Below are positions 4,966 through 36,801 of a stretch of 40,186 nucleotides of DNA, one piece after another. Each line of letters opens with the position of its first letter. Within the stretch, counting starts at the first letter, position 1. This stretch comes from a virus (taxonomy: Duplodnaviria; Heunggongvirae; Uroviricota; Caudoviricetes), in IMG/VR virus record IMGVR_UViG_2728369554_000009, positions 1 through 40,186 of that record, one strand, 5' to 3'. Position numbers and translations under genes: made by a program. Below the pieces are notes generated by a model. It searched no databases. It was not told the DNA's origin and saw nothing but the letters and a program-made list of their open reading frames with translations.

Positions 4966-4980
4966 TTACCGTTGAGGTAA
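4966..4980. promoter_or_regulatory. Operator-like palindrome TTACC-N5-GGTAA
   Basis: TTACCGTTGAGGTAA in early-left promoter region; extra half-site at 4953-4957 doubles as SD of 4794-4946 gene. Confidence 0.5.
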
Positions 4981-5099: not shown

Positions 5100-5684
5100 T
5101 TATTGTTTGTTTTTTTCGTTCTGGCTGATGACAAATTCAATGTAACTTTCGATCTTTGCCTTCTCTGTTTCGGGTAACAATGCGTAGCGCGAGCGGTCAT
5201 AGTTGATAGTCGCAGGGTCGTGCGGGTGAATCAGTAATTCATAGCCGTGACGCCCGAATGCGGATGCAACATTCTCCAGGGTGGAAATGGAAACGCTGAC
5301 CTCATTGTTTAACAGGCGGCTGATTGTCACCTGGGCGACGCCGGATGCGCGGTGAAGTTTTCCCTGTGTTGAAAGGTAGCGGCTTTCGCTCATCCAGCGT
5401 TCCAGGTTGTGAGCCGCCAGCTGACCAATGTCGCTTGGGCCGACAGGCTGAAAACCTTCCTGAGAAAGCGAGCGATCGATATCAAGCCAGTTACGGGGTT
5501 TATTGGCGGCAGCTTCAATTTTTCGCGCAACCTGGTCGCCGATAACCTTCTTGCCAAGAGCCCAGCGGTTTACCAGATTTGCCTGAGTTCCAAGTTTTTC
5601 TGCCATCCGCGTCTGAACACCATTGAATTCACGGTCGATCAAGTCGTTGAGATTTTGCCTGCGGACGTCCTGGATACTTTTCAT
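5100..5684 (-). CDS. Prophage repressor candidate with two HTH segments and no S24 peptidase domain
   Basis: 194 aa; HTH-like segments (TRMAEKLGTQANLVNRW and ASGVAQVTISRLLNNE); no GDSM/Ser-Lys autocleavage motif seen; divergent from Cro-like gene; intrinsic terminator just downstream; no SD upstream of ATG 5684. Confidence 0.65.
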   Translation of the reverse strand: MKSIQDVRRQNLNDLIDREFNGVQTRMAEKLGTQANLVNRWALGKKVIGDQVARKIEAAANKPRNWLDIDRSLSQEGFQPVGPSDIGQLAAHNLERWMSESRYLSTQGKLHRASGVAQVTISRLLNNEVSVSISTLENVASAFGRHGYELLIHPHDPATINYDRSRYALLPETEKAKIESYIEFVISQNEKNKQ

Positions 5685-5838: not shown

Positions 5839-6069
5839 ATGAGCGATAACGGACATTTCGATTTCAAAAAGCACTGGCTTGCACTTACTCCGGATGAGCG
5901 TGAAGCCTTCGCACAGGAAGCCGGAACGACGAGTCACTATATCCAGACTCACTTAACAGGTAAGCGAAAAATGCCAGGTAAAGTATTGATGAATGGGCTT
6001 TTTAAAGCCTGTAAAACAAGACAATGGCTGCGCTCAAAAGCAGAACTGGCATACTTCTTCTACTCATGA
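5839..6069 (+). CDS. Cro-like small HTH regulator
   Basis: 76 aa; EREAFAQEAGTTSHYIQTHLTGKRKMP HTH-like; divergent from repressor gene across a 154-bp region holding operator-like palindromes; followed by intrinsic terminator. Confidence 0.55.
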   Translation: MSDNGHFDFKKHWLALTPDEREAFAQEAGTTSHYIQTHLTGKRKMPGKVLMNGLFKACKTRQWLRSKAELAYFFYS

Positions 6070-8579: not shown

Positions 8580-9563
8580 ATGGAAAGTAATATCAAAGGG
8601 TTAGTTGCCGCCGGGCATGAGATGGCTTCGGAACTGAACGCAGAATGTGGTGCCGTTGATATGCGCAGTGTGGCAAAGCTGATCAGCGATTTGGCAACGC
8701 AACTGGAAGTGCAACTGGTGCGTGCTAATGCGCTGGCAGCGGAGAATGCTGGGCTTAAGGCCTTCAAAACCGCCGTTTATCAGCAGATGGGCGTCGGATG
8801 TGATGCTCCTGAATTCTCCATTACGACAGGTTTGAGTAACTTACGTCGTTTTGCTGACACACTCCACGCCATTGAACGTGAGTTCTTTACCAAAGAGCTA
8901 CCTGATGAAGAGCACGAAGGCGAAACATTCAATGAATGTCCACTTAGCTGGGGAATGAGCGTCGAACAGTACGTTTCCGAGTTTCGCAAATGCCTGGCTG
9001 AAGTGCGGGCGCAGGGCGTGGATGCTGCTATAGAAGCTGCAAAAAATCTGGTGGCCCAAGAATATGAGTATAAGGATTTCAAAGCGGCGCAGAGTGATTG
9101 CTGTATGCACCCTGGTTCAGACCTAGTAGGGAAGGTTGAAATGACTGAGTGGTTAGTTGACTTTGCTGCCCAGCTTCGCAAAGGAGGCAACCAGGCTGCC
9201 GAATCCAATCGCGGTAATGAGTGGACTGGCAATCCTGATATTGATAACGCCATCATCATGCTCGACCGCATAGATACGCTGGAAAATTGCGATGATGACC
9301 GTATTGAGGCTGTTAAGGCTGTTTTGCGTAGACTGGCTGGCAACTATCCGGTAATTCCGGATGGTTGGATAAGCTGTAGTGAGCGAATGCCGAAAGAAAC
9401 GGGTGACATTATTGTTGTTTCGGATGGCATTGTAATGTCCGGGATTTCTTATTCTCGTCGTGACGGGTTCTATATAGCCGCATTGGAGTACGACGACGAT
9501 GAGCCAATTGGCGGTGTAACCCACTGGATGCCGCTACCGAAACCGCCGCAGGAGGTGAAGTGA
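8580..9563 (+). CDS. Hypothetical protein with C-terminal DUF551-like domain
   Basis: 327 aa; C-terminal WISCSERMP...HWMPLPKPP matches the DUF551 pattern seen in lambdoid nin-region proteins. Confidence 0.55.
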   Translation: MESNIKGLVAAGHEMASELNAECGAVDMRSVAKLISDLATQLEVQLVRANALAAENAGLKAFKTAVYQQMGVGCDAPEFSITTGLSNLRRFADTLHAIEREFFTKELPDEEHEGETFNECPLSWGMSVEQYVSEFRKCLAEVRAQGVDAAIEAAKNLVAQEYEYKDFKAAQSDCCMHPGSDLVGKVEMTEWLVDFAAQLRKGGNQAAESNRGNEWTGNPDIDNAIIMLDRIDTLENCDDDRIEAVKAVLRRLAGNYPVIPDGWISCSERMPKETGDIIVVSDGIVMSGISYSRRDGFYIAALEYDDDEPIGGVTHWMPLPKPPQEVK

Positions 9564-29422: not shown

Positions 29423-29437
29423 TTACCTTAAAGGTAA
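29423..29437. promoter_or_regulatory. Operator-like palindrome TTACC-N5-GGTAA
   Basis: TTACCTTAAAGGTAA ~20 bp upstream of membrane-protein moron start (29402). Confidence 0.5.
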
Positions 29438-29462: not shown

Positions 29463-29861
29463 TTAAGTGTATACCTCCTGCTGTTCAGTCGTGATTTTAC
29501 CCGGCAACACCTTTTTAGCTTTGCGCGGGTTAACCACATGGCCTTTAGTCCAGTACTCGTAGAGCACATCATCACACTCTTCCTGATACTGGATTACCTT
29601 ATCGCGGATTTCAGGGCGGACTTTGTTTGGACTGATGCTGTTCAACCAAGCTGCCAATTTTCGTAAAGCCATACAAATCATGGCTTGCACCCCTCCGGCA
29701 GAAGGTATGGTGATTTCCACCATACCCTTCGAGAAGCGTTGAGAAATCTTCTTATGTTGAGATTTCCAGTCTAGACCCATTCCCTCAACGATAGGTTTCA
29801 TTGGGGTGTACGGTTCGCCGTTGTGATTGACAACATAAAGTTCTACGCCGTGGAATGGCAC
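29463..29861 (-). CDS. Hypothetical phage protein (possibly regulatory)
   Basis: 132-aa protein-like ORF; start ambiguous (GTG 29861 or ATG 29801); divergent from antirepressor leader. Confidence 0.45.
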   Translation of the reverse strand: MPFHGVELYVVNHNGEPYTPMKPIVEGMGLDWKSQHKKISQRFSKGMVEITIPSAGGVQAMICMALRKLAAWLNSISPNKVRPEIRDKVIQYQEECDDVLYEYWTKGHVVNPRKAKKVLPGKITTEQQEVYT

Positions 29862-30008
29862 GTTGATAGTAGTGACAAGTTTGAAACATCGCTGGTTGTA
29901 AGCCAGCAGATGCTCGTTATTTTACATCGCGGTACAATTTCTCGCTGGTGGCTCTTTTATACACCTTAACCAAATATGGTTGATTTTGATATTTATCTTC
30001 GTCTATTA

Positions 30009-30023
30009 TTACCTTTTCGGTAA
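30009..30023. promoter_or_regulatory. Operator-like palindrome TTACC-N5-GGTAA at head of Bro-N antirepressor leader
   Basis: TTACCTTTTCGGTAA, followed by TTTACA-N17-CATAGT promoter-like hexamers. Confidence 0.5.
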
Positions 30024-30103
30024 ATTTACATCGCACTCCTCTTGTGCCATAGTAATCGGGCACTGGCAAAATCCAGTGCCGGGATTGGTCTCCCGGATTA
30101 CTA
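30009..30103. repeat. Left arm of perfect 95-bp inverted repeat (antirepressor leader)
   Basis: Reverse complement of 33103-33197 with no mismatches by eye; includes palindrome 30009-30023, -35-like TTTACA and two hairpins. Confidence 0.85.
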
Positions 30104-30290
30104 CAGAGGCACATATGCCGCATAAGCGGTTTTTTTATGTGTAAAGCGCACCTATTCTATGGTGGGCTGTGTGGGGGCACCGAAAGGTGCGCCGGGTTCC
30201 TTTGTAGCCGGTAAGACCAACTCTGCACAGTTCACCACCATCTGATTGGTCTCAGCGGTGGTGATTAACCTAACTACAAAGGTGATCGCC
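30024..30290 (+). ncRNA. Structured 5' leader / candidate sRNA upstream of Bro-N antirepressor gene
   Basis: Hairpins at 30059-30080, 30079-30096, terminator hairpin+T7 at 30118-30136, GAAA-tetraloop hairpin 30177-30190, 8-bp-stem hairpin 30232-30264; mirrored with compensatory changes in the AntA leader. Confidence 0.45.
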
Positions 30291-30983
30291 ATGAATACCA
30301 AACCTTCCATCTTTTCCTTTGAGTCATCCTGCCAGATCCGTATGTTCATGATTGACGGAGAACCTTGGTTTGTCACCAAAGATGTGTGCAATGCTTTGAA
30401 TATTGATGTTACACAAGCGAGAAAACTTGATAAAAAAGGCTGGAACAAAAAGGGGCTGTATTCAATACAGACCCCTGGTGGAATACAAGAACTATCCATC
30501 GTTTCAGAATCAGGTCTCTACATCCTTATTCTGCGTTGCAAAGAGGCAATGACTGAGGGAACGAGAGCATTCAGATTTCTTGAATGGGTTACAGGTGAGG
30601 TTCTTCCTCAGATCCGCCGCACCGGAAGTTACATTAAAAACTCGCTCCCGCAGGAAGAACGCATAAAGATGGTTGCCGACCAGGTAGCCAACGCCACGGC
30701 GTCAGCAGTAATGCAGGCGATGAAGATAGAGAACAAAACCTACAGTGCCCCGCTGAAGCCCGGCTACCGCAGCCTGATTCATTCTCCGTCTGGTGTTCTC
30801 GGCCTGACGGAGAACTCACTGCTGATGAATCTGCTGAACCAGTTACAGGAAGACGGGCACGATGTATCGGGCGCGGCGGCGGAGCTGACCACCATGTTCT
30901 GCTACATCGTCGGTGTGAGCAAATGCCTGCGTGATATCCAGACGCACGCGGAATACATCAACGACAAGGCAGGGTTCTTCTGA
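30291..30983 (+). CDS. Antirepressor-family protein: Bro-N domain fused to shared C-terminal (KilAC-like) domain
   Basis: N-terminus FSFESSCQIRMFMIDGEPWFVTKDVCNAL...ESGLYILILR fits Bro-N; C-terminal ~78 aa near-identical to C-terminus of 32255-32911 gene; ATG 30291 after AAAGGTGA. Confidence 0.7.
   Translation: MNTKPSIFSFESSCQIRMFMIDGEPWFVTKDVCNALNIDVTQARKLDKKGWNKKGLYSIQTPGGIQELSIVSESGLYILILRCKEAMTEGTRAFRFLEWVTGEVLPQIRRTGSYIKNSLPQEERIKMVADQVANATASAVMQAMKIENKTYSAPLKPGYRSLIHSPSGVLGLTENSLLMNLLNQLQEDGHDVSGAAAELTTMFCYIVGVSKCLRDIQTHAEYINDKAGFF
30741..30983. repeat. Left copy of ~243-bp inverted repeat encoding the shared antirepressor C-terminal domain
   Basis: Near-identical (a handful of substitutions) to reverse complement of 32255-32497. 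Confidence 0.85.
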
Positions 30984-31021
30984 CAGAACGGCGGCACAGG
31001 GACGTGCAAAACGAAACTAGC

Positions 31022-31033: not shown

Positions 31034-31058
31034 AGGCCGCTTTCGCGGCCTTGTTTTT
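31034..31058 (+). terminator. Intrinsic terminator after Bro-N antirepressor gene
   Basis: AGGCCGC-TTTC-GCGGCCT hairpin followed by TGTTTTT. Confidence 0.65.
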
Positions 31059-31218
31059 AACGAATGCCACCGCCACCCGGGCGGGAATCCGCAGAACGCC
31101 CACCGCAGCGGGAGCCGTCAGCAGCAGTGTCGCTGTCGTGCTGACAACGACCGGCAAAGGCCTGAGTTGAAGCTACCAGAGACAACAAAACGAACAGTGC
31201 AGCAAATGCTTTTTTCAT
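31057..31218 (-). CDS. Small predicted secreted peptide (tentative)
   Basis: MKKAFAALFVLLSLVASTQAFA signal-peptide-like N-terminus followed by ~31 aa with two Cys; weak SD; 3' end runs into the terminator hairpin. Confidence 0.3.
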   Translation of the reverse strand: MKKAFAALFVLLSLVASTQAFAGRCQHDSDTAADGSRCGGRSADSRPGGGGIR

Positions 31219-31299
31219 TGTGAAATTTCCATCTATAAACCACCTCAATGTGGCGTCAATGAGTGTAGCACTGACTTTTGTTTCGTCCATAAAAAACTA

Positions 31300-31812
31300 C
31301 TATGCAGGCTTTTTGGATTTGTACGAATAATCCCACGGATAAACATTTCTACTAAGTGGAGCTGTATTCGTTCGTTCATGAAATAATTTTGTGAAATTCA
31401 ATACGGAATCCATCCAAACTTTTGCGTTAGCTTTGGTGTGTGCGGGCGGGTCCCAATAAGCTAGTAAGGCTGCATCTCTTATTTCATTGACTGCATATAT
31501 GAGATATGCGTTACTGGTTGGTTTTGGCCTGTAATTTCCTTGTTCATCAATCAATCCATATGACCACTCATCCCAACACTGTTCAGTACATGAGTATGAA
31601 TATGATGCATATTCACCAATATTGACATGAACCTTTCTGAGATGGAAGCCTAATACTTCCTCTGGTCTTTCAAAAAGAGTATCTTTTCCCAGATCAGGAT
31701 GATGACCATGACGCCAGTGTTGTTTAAAAGCATCTTTTAGCGAAATCAGAAAGTCATCAGTTTTAAACTCACCAGTAGGTATAACCTTCCCGCTATACTC
31801 ACTCAAAAACAT
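31300..31812 (-). CDS. YafO-like putative toxin (AT-rich moron)
   Basis: 170 aa; PDLGKDTLFERPEEV...AYLIYAVNEIRDAALLAYWDPPAH parallels my recollection of E. coli YafO (PDTFGRDALYDD...AHLVYCQGAFDEQAWLLIAILKPEPH); SD GGAAGAGG; overlaps upstream gene by 14 nt. Confidence 0.45.
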   Translation of the reverse strand: MFLSEYSGKVIPTGEFKTDDFLISLKDAFKQHWRHGHHPDLGKDTLFERPEEVLGFHLRKVHVNIGEYASYSYSCTEQCWDEWSYGLIDEQGNYRPKPTSNAYLIYAVNEIRDAALLAYWDPPAHTKANAKVWMDSVLNFTKLFHERTNTAPLSRNVYPWDYSYKSKKPA

Positions 31813-32125
31813 CGAATTCCTCTTCCTTCATATGCGTTTCTAATGAGTTAAGCTGGCGGAAAGATATCTCTTTTGATTCTGCAGATGAGAGCTTTTTTAT
31901 CCGCTTTATATTCTTTGTGATAGGAATAGACATTGTATGCACATCAGCGGATGCTCTTGGCTTTGTGCTGATAAAAATATGGCGCAATGCCGCATTTTCA
32001 CTATTGAACGAGCCAATAGCTGATTTACGTGCTACAACCTTACCAGTAAAAATACGACTCTTGCTACGCTTTGCATGAGTTCCGCTTCTTACCGGACCTC
32101 TCATCACGAATCCAAGTTTTGTCAT
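31799..32125 (-). CDS. Basic hypothetical protein, upstream partner of YafO-like gene
   Basis: 108 aa, Lys/Arg-rich with acidic C-terminus EEEFDVFE; SD GGAGAT; operator-like palindrome 32168-32182 upstream; not recognisably a known antitoxin. Confidence 0.4.
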   Translation of the reverse strand: MTKLGFVMRGPVRSGTHAKRSKSRIFTGKVVARKSAIGSFNSENAALRHIFISTKPRASADVHTMSIPITKNIKRIKKLSSAESKEISFRQLNSLETHMKEEEFDVFE

Positions 32126-32167
32126 CTTTAATCTCCGGTAAGTTACAGGTATAAAATAAAAACAGGT

Positions 32168-32182
32168 TTACCTTTAAGGTAA
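32168..32182. promoter_or_regulatory. Operator-like palindrome TTACC-N5-GGTAA
   Basis: TTACCTTTAAGGTAA ~45 bp upstream of 32125 gene start. Confidence 0.5.
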
Positions 32183-32254
32183 TAGTACGCTATTCACCCC
32201 CGGTCTGCAATCTGTACAGAATTATTTAAAGGCACATCCCTGTGCCACCGCCCG

Positions 32255-32497
32255 TCAGAAGAACCCTGCCTTGTCGTTGATGTACTCCGCGTGGGTCTGG
32301 ATATCACGCAGGCATTTGCTCACACCGACGATGTAGCAGAACATGGTGGTCAGCTCCGCCGCCGCGCCCGATACGTCGTGCCCGTCGTCCTGTAACTGGT
32401 TCAGCAGATTCATCAGCAGTGAGTTCTCCGTCAGGCCGAGAACACCAGACGGCGAATGAATCAGGCTGCGGTAGCCGGGCTTCAGTGGGGCGCTGTA
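32255..32497. repeat. Right copy of ~243-bp inverted repeat encoding the shared antirepressor C-terminal domain
   Basis: Near-identical to reverse complement of 30741-30983. Confidence 0.85.
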
Positions 32498-32911
32498 TTC
32501 TTTTTTGTCTTCCAGCTTGATCGCCTCCATTATGGCGGGCATGAAGCCTGACAAGACCTTCTCCACTTTTGTTTCTTGTTGTCTTAAACGTTTCTCGCAT
32601 TCAATGAAGTAGCGTCGCACCTGGCGACCTTTTTCGTTACGCTCGACCATCGCCAGCTCTTTGGCTGTATCAAGGGTGAGGTGGTACTCTTTGCGGTTGT
32701 GGCCGCCTCTACCAGATGTTTGCTTTCCCAAATTGGAAAGCAAAATATAGTCTTGATTTTCAATGAATTCGTATTCTGATATGCGATTTGTAATCCATGC
32801 TGCAAACACCTTTTTAACACCTAAAAAAGCGTGCAGATCGCGGGCATTACAAAGTAGGGCTGTTTCGTTAGATATAGTGCCGTTGAATACGGGGATGAGT
32901 TGAGCGTTCAT
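32255..32911 (-). CDS. Antirepressor-family protein: AntA-like N-terminal domain fused to shared C-terminal (KilAC-like) domain
   Basis: N-terminus [28 protein letters not shown]...[22 protein letters not shown] fits AntA; C-terminal ~78 aa near-identical to the Bro-N gene. Confidence 0.7.
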
Positions 32912-33228: not shown

Positions 33229-33486
33229 TTATCTGGTTTGTTTTCGTAATTGTTCGGCACAATAGTCGAGATGTGTTTGCAGATCCTGCATAGACATCTG
33301 TGAGCTGGTGACGTAGTTAATCAGTGCAGTCAGTTCGGCAAGTGGGCCATCGACATTAAATCCATCCTTATCGAGATCCCGGAGTAATTTCATCAAGTGC
33401 GATCCCTCCACCAGTGACCTGACGCCTCCCGGCGTGTGAATCCTTTCGGTAAATCCGTCTTCCAGTGGATAGTGATACTGCTGCAT
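33229..33486 (-). CDS. Stand-alone paralogue of the antirepressor C-terminal domain
   Basis: ATG 33486 after GGAGAA; MQQYHYPLEDGFTERIHTPGGVRSLVEGSHLMKLLRDL...QTHLDY aligns at ~40% identity by eye with the shared C-terminal domain of the two antirepressor genes. Confidence 0.5.
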   Translation of the reverse strand: MQQYHYPLEDGFTERIHTPGGVRSLVEGSHLMKLLRDLDKDGFNVDGPLAELTALINYVTSSQMSMQDLQTHLDYCAEQLRKQTR

Positions 33487-33562
33487 CTTATCTTCTCCAT
33501 GCAATAACTGTATATTTATACAGTAGCAAATAATTTGTTTGCTATCCAGCACGTTTTGCAAA

Positions 33563-33577
33563 TTACCTGAAAGGTAA
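33563..33577. promoter_or_regulatory. Operator-like palindrome TTACC-N5-GGTAA
   Basis: TTACCTGAAAGGTAA upstream of stand-alone C-terminal-domain gene (start 33486). Confidence 0.5.
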
Positions 33578-33681
33578 TATCTATTCGTATTTACAGCCTT
33601 TCTATCCATATGTGGTTTTCCAGGTAATAGAATAACCAGATATGCGGCGCAACGGGTGCTGCGACTATCTGGAGATTTAAC

Positions 33682-36600
33682 ATGACGGTCTCAACCGAAG
33701 TTGACCACAACGAATACACCGGTAACGGCGTTACGACATCGTTTCCGTATACTTTTCGAATTTTCAGAAAATCAGACCTGGTTGTTCAGGTGTCTGACCT
33801 GAACGGAAACGTAACAGAATTGGTTCTGGATACCGGTTATACGGTAACTGGGGCGGGCACTTATAGTGGCGGTTCTGTGGTTCTTCCGTCTCCGCTTGCT
33901 ACTGGATGGCGAATTACGATAGATCGTGTGCTTGATGTAGTGCAGGAGACAGACCTTCGCAATCAGGGAAAATTTTTCCCCGAAGTGCATGAAGATGCCT
34001 TTGACTACCTGACGATGCTGATCCAGCAATGTTTTGGGTGGTTCAGACGTGCATTGATGAAACCATCTTTGCTTGCAAAATATTACGATGCAAAGCAAAA
34101 CAAAATTTCTAACCTTGCAGATCCATCATTTGAGCAGGACGCTGTAAATAATCGCTCAATGCGTAATTATGTCGATGCTGCAATCGCCGGGGTTGTTGGT
34201 GGTTTTGGTTGGTTTATTCAGTATGGTTCTGGGGCTGTGTACCGAACGTTCCAGGATAAAATGCGTGATGCTATTAGCCCCAAAGATTTTGGAGCTGTTG
34301 GTGATGGTATAAATGACGATTCCACTGCAATAAGCGCGTGCCTTGAAGCCTCATCTCCAGGTTATAAAATTGACGGATTAGGGCTTACTTTTAAAGTATC
34401 AACTCTTCCGGATGTCAGTCGATTTAAAAATGCTCGTTTTTTATTTGAGAGAATACCGGGCCAGCCTCTTTTTTATGCTTCTGAAGATTTTATCCAGGGA
34501 GAGTTATTTAAAATTACAGATACACCGTGGTACAACGCCTGGACGCAGGATAAAACGTTTGTATATGACAATGTCATCTATGCGCCTTTTATGGCTGGAG
34601 ACCGCCATGGTGTAAATAACCTCCATGTTGCATGGGTTCGCTCAGGAGATGACGGGAAGACCTGGACAACGCCGGAATGGCTTACAGATTTACATGAAAA
34701 CTATCCCACAGTTAACTATCACTGCATGAGTATGGGGGTTGTCAGAAATCGCCTTTTTGCTGTAATTGAGACGCGGACCGTGAGCGGAAATAAACTGCAG
34801 GTTGCAGAGTTGTGGGATCGCCCAATGAGTCGCAGCCTTCGCGTTTATGGTGGTATAACGAAAGCAGCAAATCAGCAAGTCGCTTATATTCGCATTACTG
34901 ATCACGGATTATTTGCTGGTGATTTTGTCAACTTCTCAAACTCTGGTGTTACAGGTGTTACCGGGAATATGACGGTGACTACTGTTATTGATAAAAATAC
35001 TTTTACAGTTACGACGCAAAATACCCAGGATGTGGATCAGAATAACGAGGGTAGATACTGGAGTTTTGGTACATCATTTCACTCGTCACCATGGAGAAAA
35101 ACCAGTCTTGGAACTATTCCTTCTTTTGTTGACGGAAGCACTCCTGTTACTGAGATTCACAGTTTTGCGACGATTAGCGATAACAGTTTTGCTGTTGGCT
35201 ACCATAATGGTGATATTGGTCCACGCGAGCTTGGGATACTCTATTTCTCTGATGCTTTCGGTTCTCCTGGTAGCTTTATTCGCAGACGCATACCTGCAGA
35301 ATATGAGGCGAATGCATCTGAGCCATGTGTAAAATATTATGATGGCATTCTGTATCTGACGACCAGGGGGACATTAAGTACTCAACCCGGTAGTTCATTG
35401 CACAGAAGCTCTGATTTAGGTACATCATGGAATTCTCTTCGCTTCCCAAATAATGTTCATCACTCAAACCTTCCTTTTGCCAAAGTTGGCGATGAGCTGA
35501 TTATTTTTGGCAGTGAGCGCGCATTTGGTGAGTGGGAAGGAGGAGAACCTGATAACCGTTATGCAGGAAATTATCCAAGAACATTTATGACCAGAGTTAA
35601 CGTCAATGAGTGGAGTCTGGATAATGTAGAGTGGGTTAATGTTACTGATCAGATTTATCAGGGCGGAATAGTTAACTCTGCGGTTGGTGTTGGTTCAGTT
35701 TGTATCAAAGACAACTGGCTGTACTACATTTTCGGTGGGGAAGACTTTCTAAACCCATGGAGCATAGGGGATAACAACAGAAAATATCCTTATGTTCACG
35801 ATGGTCACCCGGCTGATTTATATTGTTTCAGGGTGAAAATCAAACAGGAAGAATTTGTTTCAAGGGATTTTGTCTACGGAGCCACTCCTAACAGAACGCT
35901 TCCTACTTTTATGTCGACGTCAGGCGTGAGGACGGTTCCTGTACCCGTTGATTTCACAGATGATGTTGCCGTCCAGTCACTGACTGTCCATGCAGGTACA
36001 TCAGGACAAGTTCGCGCGGAAGTCAAACTTGAGGGTAATTACGCCATTATTGCGAAGAAAGTACCGTCTGATGATGTTACCGCTCAGAGATTAATCGTTA
36101 GCGGCGGTGAAACAACGTCTTCAGCAGATGGTGCAATGATAACGTTGCATGGTTCCGGAAGCAGTACTCCACGTCGCGCGGTATATAACGCACTCGAACA
36201 TCTTTTTGAGAACGGAGATGTTAAACCTTATCTTGATAATGTAAATGCTCTTGGTGGTCCGGGAAACAGGTTCTCGACAGTTTATCTTGGCTCCAATCCT
36301 GTGGTTACCAGTGACGGAACATTAAAGACAGAGCCGGTCTCTCCTGACGAAGCATTGCTGGATGCCTGGGGTGACGTCAGGTATATCGCTTATAAATGGC
36401 TGAACGCTGTCGCTATAAAGGGGGAAGAAGGGGCGAGGATACATCATGGTGTAATCGCGCAGCAACTTCGTGATGTTCTTATTTCTCACGGACTCATGGA
36501 AGAAGAAAGCACAACATGCCGCTATGCCTTTCTTTGCTATGACGATTATCCCGCAGTATATGATGACGTCATTACTGGCCAAAGGGAAATGCCGCTGACT

Positions 36601-36801
36601 GATAATGAAGGGAGCATCATTGTTGATGAGGATGATAATCCAGTGATGGTAATGGAAGACATCATTGAGCGCGTTGAAATAACGCCAGCAGGATCTAGAT
36701 GGGGGGTCAGACCTGATCTCTTATTCTATATCGAGGCAGCATGGCAGCGCAGAGAAATGGATAAGATAAAAGAGCGGATTCAGTCTCTGGAAGAACGTTA
36801 A
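33682..36801 (+). CDS. Tailspike / tail fibre with beta-helix depolymerase-like domain and C-terminal intramolecular chaperone (peptidase S74-type) domain
   Basis: 1039 aa; DFGAVGDGINDDSTAI pectate-lyase-like beta-helix signature; C-terminal ...ARIHHGVIAQQLRDVL... matches the GVIAQE-type chaperone domain of endosialidase-like fibres. Confidence 0.8.
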   Translation: MTVSTEVDHNEYTGNGVTTSFPYTFRIFRKSDLVVQVSDLNGNVTELVLDTGYTVTGAGTYSGGSVVLPSPLATGWRITIDRVLDVVQETDLRNQGKFFPEVHEDAFDYLTMLIQQCFGWFRRALMKPSLLAKYYDAKQNKISNLADPSFEQDAVNNRSMRNYVDAAIAGVVGGFGWFIQYGSGAVYRTFQDKMRDAISPKDFGAVGDGINDDSTAISACLEASSPGYKIDGLGLTFKVSTLPDVSRFKNARFLFERIPGQPLFYASEDFIQGELFKITDTPWYNAWTQDKTFVYDNVIYAPFMAGDRHGVNNLHVAWVRSGDDGKTWTTPEWLTDLHENYPTVNYHCMSMGVVRNRLFAVIETRTVSGNKLQVAELWDRPMSRSLRVYGGITKAANQQVAYIRITDHGLFAGDFVNFSNSGVTGVTGNMTVTTVIDKNTFTVTTQNTQDVDQNNEGRYWSFGTSFHSSPWRKTSLGTIPSFVDGSTPVTEIHSFATISDNSFAVGYHNGDIGPRELGILYFSDAFGSPGSFIRRRIPAEYEANASEPCVKYYDGILYLTTRGTLSTQPGSSLHRSSDLGTSWNSLRFPNNVHHSNLPFAKVGDELIIFGSERAFGEWEGGEPDNRYAGNYPRTFMTRVNVNEWSLDNVEWVNVTDQIYQGGIVNSAVGVGSVCIKDNWLYYIFGGEDFLNPWSIGDNNRKYPYVHDGHPADLYCFRVKIKQEEFVSRDFVYGATPNRTLPTFMSTSGVRTVPVPVDFTDDVAVQSLTVHAGTSGQVRAEVKLEGNYAIIAKKVPSDDVTAQRLIVSGGETTSSADGAMITLHGSGSSTPRRAVYNALEHLFENGDVKPYLDNVNALGGPGNRFSTVYLGSNPVVTSDGTLKTEPVSPDEALLDAWGDVRYIAYKWLNAVAIKGEEGARIHHGVIAQQLRDVLISHGLMEEESTTCRYAFLCYDDYPAVYDDVITGQREMPLTDNEGSIIVDEDDNPVMVMEDIIERVEITPAGSRWGVRPDLLFYIEAAWQRREMDKIKERIQSLEER

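Follow-up and report, generated by a model that had tools for sequence, protein, structure and literature searches.

The virus record IMGVR_UViG_2728369554_000009 of IMG/VR, analysed here over its full 40,186 nucleotides (the window), carries on its minus strand an AT-rich two-gene cassette that lies between two antirepressor genes. The element that carries it is an epsilon15/phiV10-like (Uetakevirus) prophage of K1 Escherichia coli. The cassette is probably a bicistronic type II toxin-antitoxin (TA)-like module in the antirepressor (immI-like) region of this prophage, made up of a long YafO-type toxin and a coupled partner.

The partner gene, encoding the putative antitoxin, is an open reading frame (ORF) of 108 amino acids at positions 31799-32125 (minus strand; isoelectric point (pI) 10.6; PHROG 5933). 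The toxin candidate gene is an ORF of 170 amino acids at 31300-31812 (minus strand; PHROG 1651, the long YafO subfamily). Partner stop and toxin start overlap by 14 nt (31799-31812), as an earlier note on this DNA had described, and the overlap suggests translational coupling. The strong Shine-Dalgarno sites mentioned in that note were found as well, one per gene. GGAG at 32133-32136 is located 7 nt 5' of the partner ATG within the conserved leader motif ACCGGAGAT, and the Shine-Dalgarno-like sequence AGGAAGAGGA at 31827-31818 is located 5 nt 5' of the toxin ATG, inside the partner gene. A GC calculation gave 39.6% for the cassette compared with 48.2% for the whole window and 49-52% for the flanking genes, and an AT-richness equal to that of the cassette occurred in only 1.5% of the 826-bp stretches of the window. 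The cassette is thus compositionally distinct, in line with the lower GC content claimed for it.

The toxin candidate and its partner

On the basis of profile and fold comparisons, the 170-amino acid protein is a genuine but distant relative of YafO that defines a long-form branch. In a Pfam search the sole relevant match was YafO_toxin (PF13957), aligned over profile positions 7-100 of 101, and 21 of 36 diverse family members matched this entry at E < 0.01. When 1.84 billion representative proteins were searched exhaustively with a profile, only 55 relatives were returned, mostly of 160-200 amino acids (about 55 family clusters at 50% identity). When the profile of the 36 members was compared with YafO from E. 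coli K-12, hhalign gave a probability of 91.9% and an E-value of 7e-7 over YafO residues 11-128 of 132, and HMMER gave 26 bits with an E-value of 3e-10. A bridging protein of 133 amino acids (P0072) matched the family profile at E = 5.7e-5 in the 1.84 billion proteins and YafO directly at E = 1e-15.

Residues F29, G42, H62, W80, Y106, and H125, as candidate active-site positions, were invariant in the family, and D44, W33, G36, and P50 were nearly so. Five of the six invariant residues as well as the near-invariant D44 are identical in YafO (F29/F25, G42/G39, D44/D41, H62/H62, Y106/Y88, and H125/H109), and the sixth, W80, resides in an insertion that is absent from YafO. The window protein exceeds YafO by 38 amino acids, which are accounted for by this insertion (about 18 amino acids, at about residues 64-98, with W80 and W83), placed between the second and third core strands, and by a C-terminal tail of ~20 amino acids. 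An extra N-terminal stretch of ~40 amino acids, as the earlier note had it, does not exist, because YafO residue 11 already pairs with the window protein at about residue 15-19. An AlphaFold2 model calculated from the 36 diverse sequences reached a predicted local distance difference test score (pLDDT) of 95.3 and a predicted template modelling score (pTM) of 0.90; a model from 16 close homologues was poor (pLDDT 54) and was set aside. The predicted fold was that of RelE/HigB (BECR), and the top fold matches were all bona fide TA toxins. The proposed resemblance to YafO was therefore confirmed at the level of family, profile, and predicted fold. Purifying selection on the toxin gene was strong, with nonsynonymous divergence (dN) of 0.12-0.28 and synonymous divergence (dS) saturated in most pairs.

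In RefSeq, the entry WP_001555163.1, identical in sequence, bears the label 'type II toxin-antitoxin system YafO family toxin', so the YafO identification is already in the public annotation; PHROGs lists family 1651 as being of 'unknown function'. Comparison of the family profile with the sequences in the PDB revealed no relative of the toxin, NCBIfam and PADLOC searches returned nothing meaningful for it, and a profile search of genome contigs for relatives gave no confirmed one. Experimental work on the prophage YafO-like subfamily was not found in the literature.

The partner protein is strongly basic, with 21 Lys and Arg residues against 10 Asp and Glu residues. It matched PHROG 5933 ('unknown function') at E = 2e-73 and is labelled 'hypothetical' in RefSeq. 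No match was obtained in Pfam, NCBIfam, PADLOC, or the PDB sequences, and a DNA-binding domain was not detectable in Pfam and PDB profile searches. The earlier description of the partner as a basic protein that is not of the YafN/Phd type fits its pI as well as the lack of matches to PhdYeFM or to other entries of Pfam and NCBIfam. In matched pairs the partner showed a mean identity of 43% compared with 74% for the toxin and thus evolves much faster. Identity amounted to 63% in the first 24 residues, fell to 22% in the hypervariable basic middle, and was 68% in the last 30 residues. The conserved N-terminus reads MTKLGFVMRG..KRRK (alignment MTKLGFVMRG...KR.K), and the protein closes with a conserved acidic/aromatic module, ..SFRxLNSLExxMKEEEFDVFE, represented in the window by ..SFRMLNSLEDRMKEEEFDVFE.

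At the nucleotide level, the first 24 codons of the partner gene (32054-32125, minus strand) had dS values of 0.12-0.97 compared with 0.55 to >2 in the part encoding the C-terminus, and the motif ACCGGAGAT in the leader at 32126-32145 was nearly invariant between genera. Together, the low dS and the near-invariant leader motif suggest a constraint acting on the nucleotide sequence itself, be it translation initiation or an RNA element. A stem sequestering the Shine-Dalgarno site, in which CUUACCGGA of the window leader would pair with UCCGGUAAG in codons 11-13, was considered and dropped, as it is not conserved at other type-1 loci, i.e. those with a partner of the kind seen in the window.

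Pairing, exchange, and sister cassettes

At the loci examined, the partner gene was always located directly upstream of the toxin gene, with an overlap of 14 nt at every type-1 and type-2 locus and of 11 nt in type 3. The pairing was kept in at least three distinct genomic settings: in Uetakevirus-like and P22-like antirepressor (ant) regions, in a lambdoid prophage between the Q antiterminator and lysis genes, and beside an AlpA-type gene and one with an integrase domain. Small, adjacent, and co-oriented genes that stay together as a pair across contexts, the general criterion for type II TA systems, are thus what was found, and the maintenance of pair and overlap across several prophage contexts points to a mobile cassette.

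In blastn comparisons with TL-2011b and phiv142-3, homology to the window ended at 31296, just beyond the toxin stop codon, and restarted at 32166-32167, at a palindrome treated below. The break and the return of homology indicate that a unit of 869 bp (31297-32165, minus strand), comprising leader, partner gene, and toxin gene, is exchanged in a fixed slot. Other cassettes occupy the same slot in related phages, so that the accessory cassette postulated between the antirepressor genes indeed behaves as a swappable unit. The whole cassette was present in 69 of 5426 complete E. coli genomes, always with both genes and with at least 99.6% identity among the matches listed; a further 45 E. coli genomes matched only an operator/promoter stub and lacked the cassette. 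As far as these genome comparisons go, the cassette is a swappable accessory unit that is dispensable among otherwise near-identical phages.

Sister cassettes in IMG/VR encode toxins that are 43-49% identical and partners that are otherwise unrelated, with lengths of 113-115 amino acids in type 2, ~150 amino acids in type 2b, and 152-171 amino acids in type 3. The annotated phage record of TL-2011b adds a further partner type, gp45, with 59 amino acids; as annotated, gp45 and gp44 overlap by 26 nt, compared with 11-14 nt in types 1-3. A weakly similar C-terminal module, S/T-x6-L/I-S-x-R..acidic..F/Y-D-x-x-E, recurs in all partner types; in hidden Markov model (HMM) analyses across types, each comparison gave an E-value between 1e-6 and 1e-3. 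Such a pattern would be expected if one toxin-binding module were mounted on interchangeable scaffolds.

Related prophages possess a second, paralogous YafO-like cassette of type 3 (L003:8068-9079 in E. coli Combat2C1, L015:2417-3404, and IMG/VR L045-L047), which consists of a 152-171-amino acid partner and a 168-amino acid toxin that shares 46% identity with that of the window. This second cassette is located at another site of the same accessory region, adjoining the tail-fibre gene. One prophage can consequently hold two such modules. In the window, the counterpart of the type 3 slot is an antirepressor C-terminal fragment (33229-33609).

The palindrome, candidate promoters, and the surrounding prophage

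The right-hand swap junction of the cassette is marked by the palindrome TTACCTTAAAGGTAA (32182-32168), which has 7-nt arms round a central base and conforms to TTACC-N5-GGTAA. The earlier note had regarded it as an operator-like element belonging to the cassette. The element is present, but it is one of 15 phage-wide copies and is shared by relatives without the cassette (phiv142-3-type phages and the 45 E. coli genomes mentioned above). Twelve of the 15 copies in the window are exact; 0.8 would be expected, and 100 shuffles never yielded more than three matches. The 15-nt copies are located at 4966, 5028, 5740, 5788, 6125, 8094, 8156, 10539, 10557, 13804, 29423, 30009, 32168, 33183, and 33563, and all of them read as intergenic. 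The pairs 4966/5028 and 5740/5788 flank a repressor-like gene with a helix-turn-helix (HTH) domain (5100-5684), 8094/8156 precede genes of the replication region, 10539/10557 lie at the small terminase gene, 13804 precedes the portal gene, and the five copies at 29423, 30009, 32168, 33183, and 33563 fall into the accessory region. Two pairs, 4966/5028 and 8094/8156, are spaced by exactly 62 bp. Several copies are abutted by -10-like hexamers, as in TTGACA-16 nt-TAATCA followed by TTACC (4966) and TTGATT-17 nt-TTTAAT followed by TACC (8156). The palindrome was likewise found upstream of all three partner types, and its copies coincide with the cassette swap junctions.

An RNA hairpin was rejected as an explanation for the palindrome, because the arms were invariant without covariation while the centre varied freely. 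Invariant arms around a freely varying 5-nt centre favour recognition by a sequence-specific dimeric DNA-binding protein. In the most economical reading, the palindrome is probably the operator of the prophage master regulator. A description of TTACC-N5-GGTAA was not found in the literature searched.

Two candidate promoters were noted for the cassette. One is of the sigma-70 type (32182-32210, minus strand) and combines a -35 element TTGCAG (32210-32205) with a -10 element TACTAT (32187-32182) across a 17-nt spacer; the last base of the -10 element is the first base of the palindrome, and similar geometry recurs at other copies. The alternative, GTGGCA-16 nt-AATAAT (32221-32248, minus strand), emerged from a consensus scan. 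Its -10 element falls into a motif resembling TATAAAATAAT, which recurs in conserved form 5' of type-1 cassettes in other settings, and use of this promoter would place the palindrome at about +32 to +46 of the leader. Whichever candidate is used, occupancy of the palindrome by a protein would block transcription.

The repressor-like gene at 5100-5684 (minus strand) encodes a 194-amino acid protein with HTH_3/HTH_26 matches, a weak YdaS-like match at the N-terminus, and no Pfam match to peptidase S24. A divergent Cro-like ORF of 76 amino acids is located opposite to it at 5839-6069 (plus strand). These two genes and the palindrome pairs are compatible with an antirepressor-controlled switch. 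A homologous arrangement was seen in L015, where palindromes at 8788, 9506, and 9568 surround an HTH gene.

The antirepressor genes on either side of the cassette are of the Bro-N type (30246-30983) and the AntA type (32255-32911), and both ant operons converge on the cassette. They are preceded by Rfam matches to isrK (74.7 and 67.7 bits) and C4 antisense RNA (78.6 and 61.2 bits) at 30060-30242 (plus strand) and 33146-32961 (minus strand). These isrK/C4 leaders correspond to the RNA-controlled ant leaders of the immI type known from P1 and P7, and each begins just after a palindrome copy. The cassette is enclosed by nested inverted repeats at 30728-30984/32254-32510 (257 nt, 95%), 30004-30103/33103-33202 (100 nt, 98%), and 30207-30265/32938-32996 (59 nt, 95%). 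The 257-nt repeat is the C-terminal domain common to both antirepressors. Homologous recombination between these repeats could invert the segment 31000-32250, in which the cassette is accompanied by a small gene for a membrane protein.

The small gene follows directly 3' of the toxin gene at 31057-31218 (minus strand; ORF listed as 31057-31290). It is GC-rich (52%) and encodes ~53 amino acids with a signal-peptide-like N-terminus, MKKAFAALFVLLSLVASTQAFA; the product belongs to PHROG 14503 ('membrane associated protein / moron'). Because the homology to TL-2011b and phiv142-3 covers this gene, it is part of the conserved backbone and lies outside the swapped cassette. Two likely antirepressor remnants, each with a palindrome copy nearby, complete the region: 29463-29861 (minus strand) encodes the N-terminal domain P22_AR_N alone (132 amino acids), and 33229-33609 (minus strand) encodes only the C-terminal domain common to the full ant genes (PHROG 450). 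The left ant arm of the window (30004-31007) had its blastn match in Combat2C1 in inverted orientation. The tailspike gene at 33682-36801 (plus strand) specifies an endosialidase with End_N_terminal, End_beta_propel, End_beta_barrel, End_tail_spike, and Peptidase_S74 chaperone domains, which indicates that the prophage is specific for the K1 (polysialic acid) capsule.

Interpretation and relation to known systems

If the cassette is a TA-like module as proposed, the 170-amino acid protein most likely arrests translation via mRNA cleavage, probably on or near the ribosome, by analogy with YafO. The 108-amino acid partner most likely neutralises the toxin with its two conserved ends wrapped round it, the C-terminal module presumably contributing most. 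Since the partner is devoid of a recognisable DNA-binding domain and the palindrome is a copy of a prophage-wide operator, transcription of the cassette is probably tied to the master repressor network, instead of or besides autoregulation by the antitoxin. Among possible roles, stabilisation of the element and a defensive one, in abortive infection or against superinfection, are the most plausible.

Several results weigh against this interpretation. The Pfam search that the earlier note had named as a check did return YafO_toxin (E = 7e-4), but the check was passed only marginally, as the score of 20.1 bits for the window protein stayed under the gathering threshold of 25 bits; the relatives P0008 (25.1 bits) and TL-2011b gp44 (26.3 bits) are above it. 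A pairwise BLASTP comparison of the 170-amino acid protein with YafO from E. coli lacked significance (15 bits, E = 0.55), and among the curated defence-system models of PADLOC neither protein found a match at E-values up to 1. Homology of the partner to any known antitoxin was not detected; a resemblance of its C-terminus (MKEEEFDVFE) to that of YafN (MTDDDFNDFKE) is no more than a lead, as it was not significant by HMM or by hhalign (E = 0.077, probability 0.7% with hhalign). The TTGCAG/TACTAT candidate is weak, agreeing with the consensus at 7 of 12 positions, and the consensus scan did not list it, so that the promoter assignment is uncertain. Finally, if the prophage repressor silences the promoter, the cassette could defend a lysogen only through leaky or derepressed expression.

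Type II TA systems are normally autoregulated, and a classical variant was considered, in which the partner, with or without the toxin, binds TTACC-N5-GGTAA via its basic N-terminus and the phage-wide copies are bound by another protein or by a moonlighting partner. The palindrome does accompany the cassette into the lambdoid context and into that adjoining the AlpA and integrase genes, where it is the sole copy within 10.5 kb, and the partner N-termini are basic with short motifs recurring across types (MTKLGFVMR, MTKLVALIA, TKRVAAMR). Yet the half-sites stay the same across partner types that have no relationship over most of their sequence, the prophage carries 15 copies that extend to early, replication, terminase, and portal regions, the site persists in relatives and E. 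coli genomes that lack the cassette, and the partner has no detectable DNA-binding domain. We regard this variant as unlikely. A small chance is likewise given to the cassette being a tool of the lytic cycle, i.e. a repressor-silenced RNase that is made after induction or infection and degrades host mRNA or remodels translation, with the partner as a timing inhibitor or chaperone. The operator-like site at or just downstream of the promoter is placed like those at the lytic promoters, in the related phage ZX5 overexpression of a repressor of the homologous class cut lytic transcription by >99.9% (PMC9782041), and the cassette is situated among antirepressor genes, which have to be silent in the lysogen. 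Against such a function stand the dispensability of the cassette and its free exchange between otherwise near-identical phages, its occurrence at classic moron sites in unrelated prophages with no other operator copy in 10.5 kb, and the difficulty of reconciling a shut-off weapon with the stoichiometric co-expression of an inhibitor.

It is very improbable that the cassette is not a TA system at all and that a non-toxic or domesticated YafO-like RNA-binding protein or RNase merely adjoins an independent nucleic-acid-binding accessory protein. Both PHROG families are labelled as being of unknown function, the partner is as basic as many nucleic-acid binders, and the insertion and tail of the toxin are absent from YafO, but gene order and overlap are strictly conserved, the residues common with YafO are invariant, the predicted model finds only bona fide TA toxins as its top matches, and a fast-evolving partner with conserved termini is the usual antitoxin pattern. 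A more far-reaching proposal, which we consider speculative and unlikely, is that long-YafO cassettes form a TA family with antitoxins lacking a DNA-binding domain and wired to master repressor operators. Such modules would be released only upon repressor inactivation, for example by induction or by the antirepressor of an incoming relative, and would thereby guard repressor integrity, with the palindromes serving as swap junctions.

The practical yield of assigning the cassette to type II TA-like modules is modest, as the toxin has already been named by RefSeq; the 'hypothetical' partner becomes a candidate cognate antitoxin. YafO is among the less understood RelE-superfamily toxins, and the compact prophage-borne branch offers a confident structure model together with invariant or nearly invariant residues that can be mutated (H62, H125, D44, Y106). 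Pairing of the toxin with at least three unrelated putative antitoxin scaffolds that have a short C-terminal module in common provides a natural system for the shuffling of neutralisation modules. The phage-wide operator is the more interesting by-product, suggesting master-repressor control and an exchange of accessory cassettes at operator sites in K1-specific prophages.

A known counterpart is YafN-YafO of E. coli K-12, the toxin of which is a ribosome-associated mRNA interferase. The window toxin is homologous to it over YafO residues 11-128 and has the F, G-x-D, H, Y, and H residues in common, and the antitoxin gene precedes an abutting or overlapping toxin gene in both cases, an order that is listed for the YafO family (PMC11980606). 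YafO has been assigned to the RelE/BECR superfamily (PMC2814082; PMC11980606), and a RelE-superfamily fold is expected both for YafO (PMC2814082) and, from the predicted model, for the window toxin. YafO cleaves mRNA and arrests translation (PMC2814082, PMC7781912), and its ribosome dependence is still debated (PMC11980606). The two systems differ in toxin length (132 compared with 170 amino acids, owing to insertion and tail), in the antitoxin, which is of the Phd/YefM type in YafN and a basic protein of an unannotated family in the window, and in their location. YafNO belongs to the SOS-controlled dinB operon, whereas the window cassette occupies a prophage accessory locus and has a phage-wide operator at its promoter. 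The ribosome-dependent mRNases HigB2 of Vibrio cholerae (PDB 5mje/5jaa) and HigB1 of Mycobacterium tuberculosis (PDB 7nbu) are also RelE-superfamily members, but their sequence identity with the window toxin is only 11-14%. The HigA antitoxins possess HTH domains for DNA binding, none of which is detectable in the window partner, and the higBA order is toxin first (PMC11980606), unlike that of the window cassette.

Further counterparts are the sister cassettes, i.e. gp45-gp44 of TL-2011b, inserted in the slot that the cassette fills in the window, and those of types 2 and 3 (e.g. the Combat2C1 locus named above and IMG/VR L037-L047). Their toxins are long-YafO family members like that of the window (33-49% identity), and, as here, the partner gene is upstream and overlaps the toxin start, with a TTACC-N5-GGTAA site further upstream. 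They differ in their partners, which have other lengths and are unrelated outside the C-terminal module. The design as such, a RelE-superfamily toxin with a shuffled antitoxin, is well known and was largely anticipated by annotation. What sets this variant apart is the long-form YafO toxin, the unannotated putative antitoxin scaffolds without a recognisable DNA-binding domain, and the prophage-wide operator at the candidate promoter.

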